Shown here: positions 2,690-60,672 of the stretch, piece by piece | How the letters are laid out: every line of letters begins with the position of its first letter | How positions within the stretch are numbered: the stretch's first letter is position 1 | Assembly (NCBI GenBank): GCA_965215505.1 | Contig: OZ244065.1 | Span: 1,152,001 to 1,216,000, forward strand | Direction of reading: 5' to 3' | DNA length: 64,000 nt | Origin: Capsulimonadaceae bacterium | GTDB lineage: Bacteria; Armatimonadota; Armatimonadia; Armatimonadales; Capsulimonadaceae | Notes under the pieces: model-generated | Told to the model about the DNA's origin: nothing | What the model saw: the letters and a program-made list of their open reading frames with translations, nothing else | Databases searched by the model: none | Made by a program: the position numbers and the translations under genes

Positions 2690-4075
2690 CTATTTACCCC
2701 CCACCCCACCGCGCTGACGGGCGAACGCCTGTAAGGCCGCCTGGAGATAAGCGTCATCGGTGGGTGTGCCCGCCAGGGCGATGTCAGGGTCAACCCCGTG
2801 ACCTTCCAGATGGACGCCGTTCAGCGTCAGGTCCTCGACGGCGAGTTCCAGCAGGAAGTCCGGCCCGACCGGGAAGGATTTGCCGATCGGGAAGGTTTCC
2901 AGGCCCAGCACCGCCCCCGCCGTCCTCTGCCCGACCAGAGTGGCGCGCTTCGACTCCTGGAACGTCCACGCCAGCCATTCCTTGGCGGAGCGGGTGCCGT
3001 GGTCCACCAGTACGACCAGCGGCTTGCCGTAGCCCTCGTGTCGCTCGGCCGAGCGGGATGTCTGACGGAAATGCGCCGAAACCTGGAAGTCGGGCCGGAA
3101 GAACGGGTCGGCAAAGCCGGTCGGGGAGCCGCCATAGCCCTGCCGCAAGTCCAGCACCAGCCCGTCGGTGTCGTGCAGCCGCCCCGTGACCAGCCCCTCC
3201 AGGACAGCCTGGAACCGCGCATCCCCCATGCACCAGAGGTGGACGTAGCCGACCCGACGCCCGTCCGGCAGCGGGATGACGCGGGCGCTCTTCTCGGTCG
3301 CCGCCAGCATCAGGTCCAGGGGCGTCTGCGCGGTGGGCGTGACGGTGACGGCGGCGGTGACGCCCAGGCGGCGGTAGCCCAGTCGGGCCGGGGTCGGGCC
3401 GAACTGGGTCATCCCGTGATAGGGCCGGCCGTCTACGGAAACCAGCACGTCGCCCGCCCGCAGGCCCGCCCCCGCCGCAGGCGACCCGTCGAGGACGGCG
3501 GCGACCCGCGCGGGGTCGTCCGGGGCAGGCAGGCAGCCGATCATGTAAGGCCGCCGCACGATGTTCTGCGCCCCTCCACCTGCTGGAAATAGGTAAAGAT
3601 ATCGGGGCGTGCCGGGCTGCCTCCCCACCACCCGCCCTGGGGGGAAGTCTCGGAGGTTGTTGGGCTGACCGCCCACCACTTCAGGCAGCAGGTAGAACTC
3701 GAAGTCGTCCGGGCCGTAGAGGCGCGTGTGCGAGGCATGCAGGCGGGCCAGCAGGCCATTCATCAGGGCGAGGAACTGGGCGTCATTCGTGACCGACTTC
3801 ACGCGCGGGGCGTATTCGGCCTGGACGCGCGGCCAGTCGAGGCCGTTGAAGCCTGCATCGTAGAAGTGACCCCCGACCGCCTTGCACAAGGCGGCGAAAT
3901 CCTGTTCGTAGGTCATAGGGGCCGCCGGGCCGTTCGTCGCCGGGGCCGCCGCAGCGAGGGGAACGAACGCGGGTGGCGATTGCGCGCGGCAGACGCGCCC
4001 GGCCAGCGGCATGACAAGCCACAACAAAATCGGCCACAGCATGTGGGCACGGCTTCGGCACATAGGTGTCATCAT
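2690..4075 (-). CDS. S41 family (tail-specific) peptidase with PDZ domain
   Basis: HFYD..FNGLDW, GSPAAGAGLRAGD PDZ, LVLDLRQGYGG, TRSAKE, GQRTAGAV, EGHGVDPD; start estimated. Confidence 0.85.
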   Translation of the reverse strand: MMTPMCRSRAHMLWPILLWLVMPLAGRVCRAQSPPAFVPLAAAAPATNGPAAPMTYEQDFAALCKAVGGHFYDAGFNGLDWPRVQAEYAPRVKSVTNDAQFLALMNGLLARLHASHTRLYGPDDFEFYLLPEVVGGQPNNLRDFPPGRVVGRQPGTPRYLYLFPAGGGAQNIVRRPYMIGCLPAPDDPARVAAVLDGSPAAGAGLRAGDVLVSVDGRPYHGMTQFGPTPARLGYRRLGVTAAVTVTPTAQTPLDLMLAATEKSARVIPLPDGRRVGYVHLWCMGDARFQAVLEGLVTGRLHDTDGLVLDLRQGYGGSPTGFADPFFRPDFQVSAHFRQTSRSAERHEGYGKPLVVLVDHGTRSAKEWLAWTFQESKRATLVGQRTAGAVLGLETFPIGKSFPVGPDFLLELAVEDLTLNGVHLEGHGVDPDIALAGTPTDDAYLQAALQAFARQRGGVGGK

Positions 4076-21469: not shown

Positions 21470-24286
21470 ATGAGATCACTTCCGCCCATGTCCGCCCTGG
21501 CTCTTGGTGCCGCCGCCGTCGCTCTGCTTGGAGGGGGTGCCGCCGCCCAGACGCCCCTGGTTCCGCAAGCCGCCGTCCACCAACATCGGCTTGCCGTTCC
21601 CGTCGCCCCGCCCCCCGCTGCGCCCATCCTCTCGGGTGTCAGCGCCATGTCCGCTCCGATTCCGGGCAGCGCCGCCACGAGCGGCCTGCTGGTGCCGCGC
21701 ACCGGCCTCAGCGTGTCGCCCGCCGGCGATTTCTCGTCCGCGCTGATGCCGCCCGTCGTCAGCCCTCTCTCTGCGCTCAGGGGCGTGTTCAGCGCGAGCG
21801 CCTCGACCGGATGGACGTTCGCCGGGCCGGACGGCATCCTGAACGACACCGGCGCGGTTGACGCGGTCGGGGAAACCGCCTCGGGCCGCGTCGCGGCCAT
21901 CGCCGCTGACCCGACCGACGCCACGGACAACACTTTTTATGTGGGCGCGGCCGGGGGCGGCGTCTGGAAGACCACGAACGGCGGCGCGAGCTACATCCCG
22001 CTGACCGACTTCCTGGGCGACACGGCCACCGGCAGCATCGCGGTCGCCCCGAGCGACCACAGCACCCTCTACGTCGGCACCGGCGAGGCCAACTTCTCCG
22101 GCGACTCCAAGTACGGGATCGGCCTGCTGAAGTCCACGGACGGCGGGGCGACCTGGTCGGTCATCCCCGGCCCCGGCGGCGTATTCAACCGCCGCAGCAT
22201 CTCCAAGGTGGTCGTTGACCCGACCAGCGCTTCCACGGTCTATCTGACCATCACCTACAGTGCGAACGGCTTCACCGGCAGCTCGGGCGTCTGGAAGAGC
22301 GTTGACGGCGGCCAGACATGGGCGAACACCACGGCGCTTGTCGGCCTCGACCAGACGAACCCGTACACGGACCTGGTGATTGACCCCATCCACCCGCAGA
22401 CGCTCTACACGGCGGTCGGCTATATCTTTGGGGCCGGTACGAACGGCGTCTACAAGACCACCAACGGGGGCACGACATGGACGCTCCTGAGCGGCCTGCC
22501 CGCGTCGGGATCGAGTACGGGGCGCATCTCGCTCGCCCTGGCGGCTTCGGCACCGCAGACGCTTTACGCCTCGGTCGCCCAGACCATTGGGGCCGGGGCC
22601 GGGCTGTTCGGCCTGTACAAGACGACCGACGGCGGGGCGACCTGGGCGCAGATGACGGCCGCGCCGAACTATCTGGGCGGGCAGGGCTGGTATGATGACG
22701 CGGTCGTGGTCAGCCCCACGGACCCCAACACCGTCTTCGTCGGCGGCGTGGTCAACTACAGCGGGACCTACGGCAGCCTGTTTGCGCTGGCCGGCTCGCA
22801 CGACGGCGGCGTCACCTTCCAGGACTTCTCCATCGGACAGGGCACGCAGGGGCCGCACACGGACTTGCACGCGCTGACCTTCACCGCAGACGGCACCAAA
22901 ATGCTCGACGGCAACGACGGTGGCATCTGGCGGCTGGAGAATCCGTATTCCAACCCCGGCTCGGGCGGCACCGTCAGCCTCACCACGGTGAACTGGACCG
23001 ACCTGAACACCAACCTGGACACGGTCCAGTTCACCGGCATCGCGCTCCACCCGACCGACCCGAAGACCGCCTACGGCGGCTCGCAGGACAACGGCACGGA
23101 GAAAACCACCGGCACCCTGCCGTGGACCGCCGTGCGCGGTGGGGACGGCGGCTTCGTGCGCGTGGACCAGTCCAACCCGCTGACGGTCTACCACGAGTAC
23201 TACGGCATCTCGCTGGAGCGCTCGGATGACGGCGGCGTGACCTGGCGCGGCAGGACGAGCGGCATCAACAAGAGCGACCCGCAGCCCGCCGACGGCGAGG
23301 ACCCGGCGGCCTTCTATGTCCCCTACAAGCTGGACCCGGCCAACCAGTCGCGCGTCATCTATGGCACCGATCATGTCTACGAGTCGGTCAACAAGGGCAA
23401 CAACTTCACCACCATCGGCACGCCGGGCGTGAACGGCTTCAACCCCGGCGATGCGGTCATCAACACCCTGGGCGTCGCTGGCCCCACGGCCTCCTCCCCC
23501 GGCGCGATCTATGTCGCGGCCGGCGGGCACCTTTATGCGACATTCAACGACGGCTCGGCCTGGACCGACGTCAGCATCCCCGGCATCACGCCCTCCTTCA
23601 GCGACATCTACGTCAACCCGCTTGACACCGCCGACGTGATCGCCGCCGTCGGGTCGTTCGGGGGCGGCAAGGTCTACCGCTCCACGAACGGCGGCCAGGC
23701 TTGGGCCAGCATCAGCACGGGCCTGCCGGATGAGCCGTTCAACGCCGTCCTCGCGGACAAAGTCGCCGGCGTTTTGTATGCCGGCGGCGACGACGGCGTC
23801 TACTCCAGCACCAACTTCGGCGGCTCCTGGACCAAACTCAGTACCGGCCTGCCCACCGTGCAGGTCGTGGACCTCGCGCTGACGAACGCGACCGGCATTC
23901 TTGCTGCGGGCACCCACGGGCGCGGCATGTGGACGCTCCCGCTTTCCACCATCCTCGCCAAGCCCAACGTCGCCTTCGGCACCGCCTTCGCCCGCGTCGG
24001 CGGCGTCTTGCAGCTCACGGTCACGCTCCGCAACGCCGGCACGGCCAACACGCCCGTCGGCGTCGGGGCCGCCGACGCCTTCAACCCCGTCATGACCCGC
24101 GTCACCCTCAACGGGGTCGCCGGGGTCCCCGGCACGGGCACCGTCGCCGTCATCCCCGCTTACGGTCAGGCCACCCCGCTCACCTACACCTTCCCCGGTG
24201 CCGCGGCGGGCGCGGGCGTCCTCCAGATCGCCGGCACTTACACCGGCGGCAGTTTCGGCGGCACCATCCGCGTCACCGCGCCCTAG
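21470..24286 (+). CDS. Large secreted BNR/Asp-box (VPS10/GH74-like) beta-propeller protein
   Basis: Signal peptide; repeats GVWKTTNGG..W, KSTDGGATW, SGRV.AIA.DP, HTDLHAL, GNDGG, AGTHGRG.W; GGAG before ATG 21470. Confidence 0.85.
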   Translation: MRSLPPMSALALGAAAVALLGGGAAAQTPLVPQAAVHQHRLAVPVAPPPAAPILSGVSAMSAPIPGSAATSGLLVPRTGLSVSPAGDFSSALMPPVVSPLSALRGVFSASASTGWTFAGPDGILNDTGAVDAVGETASGRVAAIAADPTDATDNTFYVGAAGGGVWKTTNGGASYIPLTDFLGDTATGSIAVAPSDHSTLYVGTGEANFSGDSKYGIGLLKSTDGGATWSVIPGPGGVFNRRSISKVVVDPTSASTVYLTITYSANGFTGSSGVWKSVDGGQTWANTTALVGLDQTNPYTDLVIDPIHPQTLYTAVGYIFGAGTNGVYKTTNGGTTWTLLSGLPASGSSTGRISLALAASAPQTLYASVAQTIGAGAGLFGLYKTTDGGATWAQMTAAPNYLGGQGWYDDAVVVSPTDPNTVFVGGVVNYSGTYGSLFALAGSHDGGVTFQDFSIGQGTQGPHTDLHALTFTADGTKMLDGNDGGIWRLENPYSNPGSGGTVSLTTVNWTDLNTNLDTVQFTGIALHPTDPKTAYGGSQDNGTEKTTGTLPWTAVRGGDGGFVRVDQSNPLTVYHEYYGISLERSDDGGVTWRGRTSGINKSDPQPADGEDPAAFYVPYKLDPANQSRVIYGTDHVYESVNKGNNFTTIGTPGVNGFNPGDAVINTLGVAGPTASSPGAIYVAAGGHLYATFNDGSAWTDVSIPGITPSFSDIYVNPLDTADVIAAVGSFGGGKVYRSTNGGQAWASISTGLPDEPFNAVLADKVAGVLYAGGDDGVYSSTNFGGSWTKLSTGLPTVQVVDLALTNATGILAAGTHGRGMWTLPLSTILAKPNVAFGTAFARVGGVLQLTVTLRNAGTANTPVGVGAADAFNPVMTRVTLNGVAGVPGTGTVAVIPAYGQATPLTYTFPGAAAGAGVLQIAGTYTGGSFGGTIRVTAP

Positions 24287-58242: not shown

Positions 58243-58320
58243 GCAGGGCGACATCGCCGTTGTTCTCTTCCCGAACTCCGACCTATGCACAACGAAGAAG
58301 CGGCCGGCGCTCGTATATCA
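58232..58320 (+). pseudogene. Truncated PemK/MazF toxin
   Basis: MPFRQGDIAVVLFPNSDL...KKRPALV, then similarity is lost where the convergent ORF ends. Confidence 0.7.
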
Positions 58321-58593
58321 TTGTAGGTCTGGGTCAGTGTCTCCCCAAAAAAGAGGCCATGCGTCGAAGTCAAGAACTTCCACTCTATTAACGACGAGAG
58401 TGTAGACGACCGCCTCATGCTCACCGGCGGACTTAACCAAAACCTCCCACGTCACGCCATCAACTATCTGGAAATAGGGACAGCCGGGATCACCGCTCGA
58501 TAGCCAAGCCACTGGTTTGCATATATCAGGATGGGCTGACCAATCGTTCAAGTTCACACCTCGTGATAAGCAAGCGCATTGTAACACCGTCAC
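58318..58593 (-). CDS. Hypothetical protein or fragment (low GC)
   Basis: 91-aa ORF; no family recognised. Confidence 0.35.
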   Translation of the reverse strand: MTVLQCACLSRGVNLNDWSAHPDICKPVAWLSSGDPGCPYFQIVDGVTWEVLVKSAGEHEAVVYTLVVNRVEVLDFDAWPLFWGDTDPDLQ

Positions 58594-58607
58594 CGTGACA
58601 GAGTAGG

Positions 58608-58735
58608 GACATCCGCAGCAGGATTTGAACCCGCGACCTCCGGGCCGCAGCAGGCGGAGCCACCGCCTGCTACTTCACATGGTGGCGAGCCACGTTCCTC
58701 CGGTACTCTGGCTGTCTCTGAGCTACACGGATGTC
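58608..58735 (-). ncRNA. tRNA-like RNA with expanded anticodon arm, no encoded CCA
   Basis: GACATCCGTG-TA-GCTCAG...AGAGT-A-CCGG-[insert]-CCGG-AGGTC-GCGGG-TTCAAAT-CCTGC-TGCGGATGTC; TGcTACAAT 6 nt upstream. Confidence 0.7.
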
Positions 58736-58776
58736 GCATGTATTGTAGCATATCCTGCACCTGAGAAAATCCTCTC

Positions 58777-60169
58777 TTACGCTTCCGGCCTGCGTCGAGG
58801 AAACAGCCGCGCGAAGAGGGAGCCACACACGACCGCCAAACAAGCGTAAGCCGACCAGTCGCCGAAGCGGGTGAAGAAGGTGCCTCGCCCGTCGCCCAAT
58901 GCCACGTCGCCGACAAGCACGTCGGGGGTGAACAAGGGCGACTGGCCGACGATGCGGCCCTGGGCGTCCACGATCTGCGAGAGGCCGTTGGAGTCGGCGC
59001 GGACGAACGGGACGGCGTTCTCGACGGCGCGGAAGGGGAGCATGGTCCCGTGGAGGCGGTGCAGGACGCCGCGCGGGGTGGGAGGGTCGTAGTTGGGGAG
59101 CGCGATCAGCCGCGCCCCCTGCCCCGCCTCTTGCCGGGTCGTGTTGGTGTAGCAGCTGTCGAAGCAGATTTCCAAGCCGATCTTCCCCTGCGGCGTCTCA
59201 ACGACTGTGGCCGCATGGCCGGGCTGGTTCGTCTCGCGCTCGGACAGGTAGAGGTGGATCTTGTGGTGGGCGGGGGCGAGAACGTCGCCATCAGGGGCGA
59301 GGTAGGCGGCGCAGTTGAACGGCTTGGGGCGGGTGTCGTCCGAGTAGCCGACGACGAGGGCGGTTCGGAGCTGGCGGGCGAGCAGGCGGGTCTCGTCTTT
59401 GGGGCTGGGGGGGGGTGAACTCGCCGCCGAGGGACTCTTCCGACCAGACAACGAGTTTTGCCCCGCGCGCCGCAGCCTGCCGGGTCAGGGCGACGCGGTC
59501 CGCCTCCGCGCCCGCCGGGGCCAGGTCGCCGGTTTCCTCGGGCGTGAGGTCCTGGATGGCCGCCACGCGCAGGCGCGGTGCGGTCGGGGGATGGGACAGA
59601 CGCAAGGTGCCGTAGCCGAGTGACAGCAGGACGAGGGCCACGCCGACGCCGAGCGGTGCGGCTTTGCGGCGTAGTGCGATCTCCATCAGGGCGGCGTTCG
59701 CCCACCAGAGCAGGAACGAGACGCCCCAGATGCCGGTGATGCCGGCGATCTGGAGGAGCGGCAGGTTTTGGTACTGACACAGGCCGATGTTGAGCGGCAG
59801 GGGCAGGAACGAGGTCAGCCACTCGCCCGCGATGCCGGCACAGGCCAGGAACAGGACGCGCCGCAGCGGGTGCCCGGCGGCGGGCACTTTCGCGGCGGCG
59901 ATGGCGACGAAGCCGAGCAGGAAGGCCAGCCAGAGGAACGGGATGTAAGCCCAGAACAGCCTGGCAGTGTCGTGATACCAGCCGGCCTGCGCCGCCCCGC
60001 AAACCCCGCCCGCAATCAGGCCCAGACCGACGGCCTCTAAAGGACGCCGCCCCTGGGCGGCGATCAGGAGGGGCGCGAAGGCGAGCCAGCCCAGCCACTC
60101 CTGGTCGAAGGGCGGCAGGCTGAAGGCGAACAGCAGGCCCGTCAGACCCGCCAGCAGGAGTGGTTTCAT
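58777..60169 (-). pseudogene. lnt: Apolipoprotein N-acyltransferase-like gene, frameshifted at a C9 run (or assembly indel)
   Basis: N-terminal TMs, G.WGVSF, WSEES in one frame; HKIHL, EICFDS, RAVEN...VRA...G.S..VD..G in the other. Confidence 0.75.
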
Positions 60170-60672
60170 GGGGTCGCCGCCTCGGTGCGGCGTGTTTCGA
60201 TGCGTTCCAGTTCGTCAACGTCCCGGCGGCAGAGCCACAAGGGGACGATGCCGACGACGCCGAACGAACAGTCTATCAAGCGCCAGAAGTAGGGGATGCC
60301 GCGTAGGGGGCCGAAGACCAAAGCCCACGGCACGACGCAGACGCAGGCGATCATGCCGAAGGTCAGCACCCAGCGGTTGCGGACCGGGTCGCGCAGGGGG
60401 CCAAGGAAGGCGACGGCGATCATCAGGTGCCCGAAAGCCAGCCAGTCCGTGCCGTAGGCGAGGAAGGGGTAGCGGGCGTCCGTCTCGTGCAGGCCGTCCC
60501 GGACGCGCCCGATCCAGTGCGTCAGGCCGTTGTCGCCGGTCCCGATCAGCCGCGCCAGGGTGTCCAGCTCCCAGGCAAGAGGAATGGCCGTCACGCCGCT
60601 CAGGACGAGGCCGAGCAGGAACAAACTGAGCCACCATCGGATGCGCCGCCGCAGAAGGTCGGCGCGGGTCAT
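60166..60672 (-). CDS. Hypothetical membrane protein
   Basis: GLVLSG.TA.PL..EL, YPFLAYGTDWLAF.HL.IA..F.GPLRDPVRN.W, RLIDCSFG. Confidence 0.75.
   Translation of the reverse strand: MTRADLLRRRIRWWLSLFLLGLVLSGVTAIPLAWELDTLARLIGTGDNGLTHWIGRVRDGLHETDARYPFLAYGTDWLAFGHLMIAVAFLGPLRDPVRNRWVLTFGMIACVCVVPWALVFGPLRGIPYFWRLIDCSFGVVGIVPLWLCRRDVDELERIETRRTEAATP

Follow-up and report, generated by a model that had tools for sequence, protein, structure and literature searches.

The window analysed here is a stretch of 64,000 nucleotides (nt) of a Capsulimonadaceae genome (contig OZ244065.1, positions 1,152,001 to 1,216,000). On its minus strand, at 58735-58608, it holds a gene for a 128-nt RNA that has the shape of a transfer RNA (tRNA). 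Because two hairpins stand where the codon-reading loop should be, this RNA most likely cannot decode. An earlier note, made from the letters of the window, had described a promoter-bearing, tRNA-shaped RNA without an anticodon loop. This description is supported by a comparison of related copies, which are conserved with compensatory changes, and at the level of sequence the comparison establishes the fold, its conservation and the transcribed strand. We predict, with a confidence only a little better than even, that this is a free-standing gene for a stable, non-decoding carrier RNA built on a tRNA frame.

A conserved tRNA frame with two hairpins in place of the anticodon loop

Seven full-length copies were found in five Armatimonadota genomes. 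Two are in this genome (G000), one is in an Armatimonas metagenome-assembled genome (MAG; G039), three belong to two Capsulimonas MAGs (one in G064, and G065A and G065B in G065) and one is in an Abditibacterium MAG. In the alignment of these seven, 97.6% of the 287 cells are standard-paired and 17 of the 41 pairs change on both sides. Pairing or covariation at this level was reached in none of 500 shuffles, and when the partners were slid by 1-3 columns, 31-48% of the cells were paired. The changes on both sides fall in the acceptor stem, the anticodon-like stem and both hairpins (Table 1); the D and T stems hardly vary among copies, as in tRNAs. RNAalifold, run on an independent MAFFT alignment, gave the same fold. 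On the window's minus strand there are 29 G.U cells and five A.C cells, an excess that shows selection on the minus-strand RNA. The variants of an eighth copy, from sequencing run X9, fit the fold too: with A34 changed to G, a G-C pair with C89 is formed, and the change of U54 to C replaces a G.U by a G-C pair.

The canonical tRNA features kept in the seven-copy alignment are an acceptor stem of 7 base pairs (bp), the D arm, a 5-nt variable loop, the T arm and the core U8/A14/G15:C48/GTTCRA, with U8, A14, G15 and A21 present in all seven. What is absent is a 7-nt loop with U33 and an anticodon, closed by a 5-bp anticodon stem. The elements that the earlier note had listed, namely the -10 box, the 10-bp stem, the D and T arms, AGGUC, the CCGG/CCGG strands, the 9-bp hairpin and the lack of an encoded CCA, were all found in the window copy where it had placed them. 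There, GACATCCGTG (58735-58726, minus strand) and TGCGGATGTC (58617-58608) make the 10-bp stem with two G.U pairs, and the innermost pair of the anticodon-like stem is A.C, which is G-C or A-U in other copies. The D loop of the window copy is without GG, as had been noticed; GG appears only in this genome's second copy.

End pairing was examined in the seven copies with six flanking bases added. Pair -1:73 forms in every copy (CG in five, UA in two) and covaries. Pair -3:75 is GC in five, CG in one and unpaired in one, and pair -2:74 is GU in three, AU in one and unpaired in three. The 10-bp terminal stem described for the window is a feature of the family, and 8 bp of it are universal in the seven copies.

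The replacement of the anticodon loop is a three-way junction bearing two covarying hairpins. The insert between the anticodon-like strands is 54 nt in the window copy and 54-56 nt across copies. Its first junction strand is 3 nt in six copies and 1 nt in G039, followed by hairpin 1, which has a 5-bp stem and a 9-nt loop. The strand between the hairpins is GAA or GGA. Hairpin 2 has a stem of 10-11 bp; its loop is 5 nt long, or 7 nt in G039, and the hairpin is followed by an invariant GG. In the window copy, hairpin 1 pairs ACGUG (58695-58691) with CAUGU (58681-58677) and its loop has GCCA at 58686-58683. The GTGG-CTCG-CCAC hairpin of the earlier note had to be given up in favour of this stem: it can form only in the window copy and is impossible in the second copy, and the 5-bp ACGUG/CAUGU stem covaries instead. 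The 9-bp AGCAGGCGG/CCGCCUGCU pairing proposed for hairpin 2 stands in the window copy, and the seven-copy comparison extends it to 11 bp. GCCA in the loop of hairpin 1 and UGGC in the loop of hairpin 2 are each invariant in all seven copies and mutually complementary. At the position flanking them a pair forms in two copies, U-A in G039 and C-G in G065B; four others have C.U there and one has C.C. From these sequences we infer, within reason, that the two loops may touch.

At the window locus, ARAGORN called neither a tRNA nor a transfer-messenger RNA (tmRNA). Rfam 15 gave no family at gathering score across the window, and at E <= 10 over 58300-59000 nothing meaningful and no match to the tRNA model. 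The earlier note had expected both outcomes. This genome has tRNAs for all 20 amino acids and selenocysteine (SeC), and its own tmRNA. The family is not needed for decoding: a consistent 7-nt loop with U33 cannot be drawn, and the tRNA set of the genome is complete.

Table 1. Parts of the tRNA-shaped RNA gene and its promoter in the window copy.
Feature	Position	Strand	Remarks
Extended -10 promoter box TGCTACAAT	58750-58742	minus	Then 6 nt to the first stem base of the RNA
Leader GAC (3 nt)	58735-58733	minus	Pairs with G73-U74-C75 (58610-58608), making the terminal stem 10 bp long; probable transcription start
Acceptor stem, 5' strand AUCCGUG	58732-58726	minus	Changes on both sides in 5 of 7 pairs among copies
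UA linker between acceptor 5' strand and D arm		minus	Read in the sequence
D arm GCUC-AGAGACAGCCA-GAGU, then A	58723-58705	minus	11-nt loop without GG; stem nearly invariant
Anticodon-like stem, 5' strand CCGGA	58703-58699	minus	Partner 58644-58640; changes on both sides in 3 of 5 pairs
Hairpin 1, 5-bp stem, 9-nt loop GCUCGCCAC	58695-58677	minus	100% paired; 3 of 5 pairs altered on both sides
Hairpin 2, 11-bp stem, loop UGGCU	58673-58647	minus	UGGC at 58662-58659; changes on both sides in 6 of 11 pairs
Anticodon-like stem, 3' strand CCCGG	58644-58640	minus	Invariant GG (58646-58645) just before
Variable loop AGGUC (5 nt)	58639-58635	minus	Invariant in 7 of 7 copies; C48 able to form a Levitt pair with G15
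T arm GCGGG-UUCAAAU-CCUGC	58634-58618	minus	100% paired; GGUUCAA invariant
Acceptor 3' strand UGCGGAU, discriminator G (58610), UC pairing with the leader	58617-58608	minus

Promoter, distribution and genomic setting of the copies

The promoter claim of the earlier note held, in that a -10 box is present and the same box at the same spacing recurs in five of the eight copies. Four copies (window, G064, G065A and X9) have a TGnTAYAAT box whose end lies nine bases ahead of acceptor base 1, and G065B has the same box and spacing with GG replacing TG. The box variants TGGTATAAT, GGGTATAAT and TGGTACAAT are found among the G065 copies, G064 and the X9 copy. Weaker A/T hexamers stand at similar spacing in the Abditibacterium and G039 copies. 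Genome-wide, the nine-base motif was found 305 times against about 377 expected, and because it is not enriched, its recurrence at one spacing is meaningful. The real tRNA genes of this genome have TATAAT-type boxes 7-11 nt before their mature 5' ends, so that the RNA gene and the tRNA genes are laid out alike. A second extended -10-like box, TGTTACAAT, lies at 58586-58578 on the minus strand, 22 nt after the RNA, and is probably for the next gene. Its surroundings are similar in sequence to those of the box of the RNA itself.

A first DNA search of 41 related genomes gave the second copy in this genome (genome position 4,778,535-4,778,657) and the G039 copy. A covariance model was built from these three copies and run on all 71 genomes of the order; a class-level search covers the identical 71. 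Four of the 71 were positive, with six copies (two in G000, one in G039, one in G064, two in G065) that score 99-138 bits over about 120 nt. Among the matches listed, all others are ordinary 71-75-nt tRNAs of at most 54.2 bits. In a sample of 151 genomes of the phylum, where the filters were stricter and 23 candidates per genome were scored, the genome of the window was the only positive one; in the Abditibacterium class, one of 31 genomes was positive. The covariance model that the earlier note had proposed as a check thus returned homologues with compensatory changes, and no Rfam family claimed the window locus. The observation withstood the refuting check of that note.

Larger collections were scanned with the pattern GCCA..UGGC..GG..AGGTC..GGGTTCRA, which is strict and misses diverged members. 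In one genome per prokaryote species it gave 21 loci, 20 of which were scored with the model (one repeated contig was omitted), and four contigs were true: those of the Armatimonas MAG, the two Capsulimonas MAGs and the Abditibacterium MAG. The same pattern gave two loci in viral contigs, both ordinary tRNAs, and 29 loci in JGI metagenomes, none of them true (best 50.2 bits at 75 nt; two weak long matches at 21-22 bits). A looser viral scan gave at least 119 loci; among the 80 listed, none has this insert, and many are 100-129-nt tRNA bodies with other inserts, scoring 27-49 bits. Many of these viral bodies resemble tRNA-Ile(UAU)-type tRNAs with an insert beside the anticodon, some of them in giant-virus contigs. 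The insert is in the D loop in loci L135 and L139, and it replaces the anticodon loop in L144 and L176.

The eighth copy lies on a 793-nt DNA contig of run X9. It matches only 58610-58733, with 17 differences; its flanks on both sides are unrelated to the window, and the similarity breaks exactly at the RNA ends. Since the G064 and G065A copies are 99.2% identical, the family represents about five independent lineages. The two copies of this genome are 74% identical to each other, and each is nearer to copies of other genera (79.7% and 77-78%). No parent tRNA of the family was identified.

In the window, the copy has lnt upstream, and downstream of it are an open reading frame (ORF) of 91 amino acids (aa) and genes for a HAF-repeat protein, a DUF6714 protein and a GNAT protein. 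The G039 copy lies between aminotransferase and ornithine carbamoyltransferase genes and shares their orientation. In G065, two GNAT genes are bracketed by the two copies, and the duplication takes in the promoter. The neighbour is a HAD hydrolase in G064 and a GGDEF-EAL protein in Abditibacterium, where the contig ends 12 nt past the copy. When the ORFs around the copies were compared all against all, the only sequences in common were translations of the RNA. Searches of the neighbours with Pfam, PHROGs, NCBIfam and PADLOC found nothing recurrent, the single PADLOC match being a weak P-loop, and searches of the other carrier genomes did not find the two ORFs that flank copy 2. The decoy and RNA-antitoxin roles offered in the earlier note find no support here, as the copies have no toxin, defence, TROVE or RtcB gene as a recurrent neighbour.

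Gene order is conserved in the closest relative, G012 (Lnt 89% identical). However, the spacer following lnt measures about 230 nt there, compared with about 460 nt in the window, and has no copy. Judged from this sequence comparison, the site is empty in G012 and the window copy appears to have been acquired. No clear target-site duplication was seen on comparison with the empty site, and this 6.18 Mb genome has two copies.

Other observations concern these surroundings. The lnt gene is seemingly split into overlapping frames on the minus strand, 58777-59451 (CN_hydrolase domain) and 59106-60218. Its lnt-matching open frame is 235 aa here and 464-512 aa in 16 of the 19 matched relatives; the frames of the other three (286, 376 and 473 aa) are at contig ends. 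The split reflects either a frameshift or an error of assembly near 59400-59450. At G000:C1:4778668-4778767 there are four 25-nt repeats in tandem, each forming a small hairpin; they end about 11 nt before copy 2, and their unit occurs nowhere else in the genome. ARAGORN reports a 92-nt tRNA-Gly(CCC) at 24009-24100 of the window, which has a poor cloverleaf and 74% GC and is a false call unrelated to the RNA. A 92-nt tRNA-Arg(CCG) at genome position 3525896-3525987 is equally doubtful. ARAGORN also reports a tRNA of undetermined anticodon at G000:C1:1991483-1991559, which is like tRNA-Glu with a short anticodon loop and stands behind a promoter-like box. A tight array of six tRNAs (Arg, Asn, Met, Gly, Phe, Lys) at G000:C1:2219562-2221409 may mark an island.

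Comparison with known RNAs

The earlier note had held that the RNA is not a tmRNA, a tRNA-Sec or a permuted YrlA, and feature tests bear this out. Like tmRNA, the family builds its acceptor and T arm from the two ends and has a big insert in the place of the anticodon arm. However, it is without G3:U70 (3:70 is C-G in four copies and U-G in three), a tag reading frame and a pseudoknot ring, and it has a full D stem. ARAGORN and Rfam are silent, and the genome's tmRNA is elsewhere. The 8-bp terminal stem is the only likeness to tRNA-Sec, as the family has no UCA anticodon, long variable arm or 6-bp D stem, and the genome has a tRNA-SeC of its own.

In the passages of PMC4201824 that treat them, YrlA and other bacterial Y RNAs are non-coding RNAs with a tRNA-like domain recognised by tRNA enzymes; in YrlA this domain is permuted (T arm, closed acceptor-like stem-loop, D arm), with GNCGAAN0-1G near the 5' end. 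Our family, in contrast, has the normal tRNA order (acceptor, D, insert, T, acceptor) and is without this motif. YrlA is encoded beside the Ro60 gene, whereas the window copy is 473 kb from the Ro60 gene of this genome (1,683,663-1,684,553; RNA copies at 1.21 Mb and 4.78 Mb). TROVE is present in three of the five carrier genomes against 37 of the 71 of the order, and so is not commoner in carriers. It was found in none of three genomes of Capsulimonas, a genus that carries the RNA.

The Ro60 locus has tRNA-like RNAs of another kind. Upstream of TROVE (G000:C1:1682163-1686053, ~2940-3560, minus strand), Y-RNA-like hairpins alternate with two long tRNA-like RNAs, and one hairpin has GCCGAAG, the bacterial Y-RNA motif. 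The two RNAs, of about 125 and 112 nt, are in normal, non-permuted order with G3:U70, and one encodes ACCA. They have inserts of about 40-50 nt at the anticodon position, with a common conserved motif. The tRNA model of Rfam covers both over their whole length (38.8 and 44.5 bits); ARAGORN is silent. Four relatives have similar 108-122-nt tRNA matches beside TROVE. In sequence, these tRNA-like RNAs are unrelated to the family reported here. In G033 and G040, of the same order, TROVE adjoins arrays of 7-8 ordinary tRNA genes.

In three-way junctions of the signal recognition particle (SRP) Alu domain and purine-riboswitch type, two adjacent hairpins stand on a closing helix and their loops pair with each other via G-C. 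The family has a closing helix with two hairpins and complementary loops, and this likeness is a structural analogy only. It matches no Rfam SRP or riboswitch model, and its junction strands are short (2-3 nt) and partly variable.

By analogy, the general design of the family is one it shares with T4 rnaC and rnaD, its closest natural counterparts in this respect, and with the engineered tRNA scaffold. The roles of T4 rnaC (species 1, 139 nt) and rnaD (species 2, 119 nt) are given as still unknown in the relevant part of PMC3014915. Like the family, they are stable RNAs of about 120-140 nt, and they are made alongside tRNAs. When folded here, rnaC has a canonical T arm and a terminal stem at its end with large hairpins between, but neither T4 RNA has a clear D arm, the 5-nt variable loop or the three-way junction of the family. 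They are phage genes in a tRNA cluster with no promoter box of their own, whereas the family is chromosomal and solitary. BLAST against 50,697 phage records matched 27 of 135 bases, in the T-arm region, in one record, with no similarity to the T4 RNAs. The scaffold of Ponchon and Dardel, as outlined in part of PMC3753655, keeps the acceptor, T and D arms and uses the anticodon stem-loop as a stem-closed insertion site, and the chimera is processed and protected like a tRNA. The family likewise keeps these three arms and has a stem-closed insert in place of the anticodon loop. The scaffold is man-made with a user-chosen insert, whereas the insert of the family is natural and conserved and its acceptor end is closed by a paired leader. 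No published description of such an RNA was found in the literature searched, which did not cover subscription journals. The insert of the family is undescribed.

What the RNA may do

We suggest that the transcript begins with the G of a 3-nt leader (G-R-C), about 7 nt downstream of the extended -10 box. The leader would pair with the discriminator and the next two bases, closing a terminal stem of 8-10 bp and leaving no acceptor end free, a point against charging. Most nucleotides of the L shape are kept in the D arm, variable loop and T arm (U8, A14, G15:C48, T-loop), and the frame may give correct end-processing and nuclease resistance, as it does in tRNAs and the engineered scaffold. The working part would be the three-way junction with its short and long hairpin, whose GCCA and UGGC loops could pair together as a rigid knob or form a binding face for a partner. 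The family is rare, patchy and untied to any neighbour gene. Since the sister copies are nearer to those of other genera and the census is patchy, we regard it as accessory and occasionally gained; the sequences suggest an RNA that acts in trans and is occasionally transferred. Of the roles named in the earlier note, scaffold is the word that fits best, as a description and not as a demonstrated function.

Several points weigh against such a carrier RNA. Copy 2 of this genome has no recognisable -10 box. G18-G19 is absent from six of the seven copies, so the elbow may not form as in tRNA. Some copies may be decaying, since G065B has one A.A and one A.C mismatch and scores 99 bits. The family is small, with eight copies from the few lineages counted above. 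The single-sequence fold energy (z = -1.87), taken alone, is unremarkable, and the case therefore rests on comparison with other copies. The proposed GCCA/UGGC contact has behind it invariance and one flanking position and no true covariation. Invariant pairs cannot give such a signal, and the unequal stems may hinder the contact; as the hairpins differ by 6 bp in length, an intramolecular kiss is sterically uncertain. Finally, an ORF on the same strand begins about 30-170 nt downstream in all six copies that have sequence beyond, as a role in cis would have it.

Such a cis role, unlikely in our judgement, would be that of a leader or punctuation module: the promoter and tRNA-like fold drive, and RNase P and 3' processing then release, the downstream mRNA, with the RNA as a by-product. 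Mostly there is no terminator before the downstream ORFs. The co-oriented genes on both sides of the G039 copy and the GNAT genes bracketed in G065 agree with this arrangement, and the alternation of tRNA-like units and Y-RNA-like hairpins at the Ro60 locus would suit such processing. However, the downstream genes are mutually unrelated, and the G039 copy is directly followed by a terminator-like hairpin with a T run. The next gene in the window may not need the leader, given the second -10-like box after the RNA. Invariant GCCA/UGGC loops and covarying hairpins are also unnecessary for simple punctuation.

Another reading, distinctly improbable, is that the patchiness reflects the spread of a small selfish or mobile DNA module, or of a preferred recombination site, in place of an RNA function. 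Against it, there are only one or two copies per genome, neither a target-site duplication nor a transposase was recognised, and the excess of G.U over A.C together with the invariant tRNA core speaks of selection on one-strand RNA, which DNA mobility does not need. Such a module would account for the low counts in the order, the phylum sample and the Abditibacterium class, the syntenic G012 site without a copy, and the likeness of the G000 copies to those of other genera. It would also account for the G065 duplication that includes the promoter and for RNA ends that form an inverted repeat.

A true tRNA gene with a short intron, removed to give a decoding tRNA, is very hard to defend. ARAGORN with introns allowed forces a tRNA model on six of the seven copies, and GCGG is conserved before the 3' strand of the anticodon-like stem. 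These models, however, disagree: three anticodons and five places of insertion are proposed, namely Arg-GCG at three of the places, each time with 49 nt of intron, Pro-AGG with an intron of 42 nt and Arg-CCG with one of 39 nt. At default stringency, one copy has no model. They need a 4-bp or different stem, have no U33 at a fixed place and put the supposed anticodon bases within a covarying helix. The genome already has all isoacceptors, including two for Arg-GCG. As far as is known, the introns of bacterial tRNA genes belong to group I and are about 200 nt or longer, which also counts against this proposal. Least credible of all is a functionless, decaying tRNA pseudogene or integration scar: the missing anticodon loop and G18-G19 and the visibly degraded G065B copy would suit it, but neutral decay would not preserve covarying helices (compensatory changes in four of them across two classes of the phylum), invariant loop motifs and a conserved promoter.

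A more specific role is a long shot, though one worth stating. The hairpins might mimic an anticodon loop bound to its complement, the loop of hairpin 2 (U-GGC-N) resembling that of tRNA-Ala(GGC), and hairpin 1 (loop YU-Y-GCC-A) that of tRNA-Gly(GCC). With its leader sealing the acceptor end of the tRNA frame, such an RNA would act as a decoy that can be neither cleaved nor charged, or it could be a sensor, and it would travel as a transferable one-gene module with its own promoter. If this were true, its targets would be factors that examine anticodon loops or codon-anticodon helices, for example anticodon nucleases, modification enzymes or the decoding centre.

For the carrier RNA that we favour, the meaning is broader. 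Non-decoding tRNA-shaped RNAs have been known since T4 species 1 and 2, and none of that type has an assigned role. The family is a clean case for study, since it is chromosomal, has its own promoter, a covariation-defined fold and two invariant loop motifs, and is present in two copies in a one-contig genome. Nature may here use the tRNA-scaffold trick that engineers devised for the expression of foreign RNA. The partner of the GCCA/UGGC module, once found, would give this whole class of RNA its first function.
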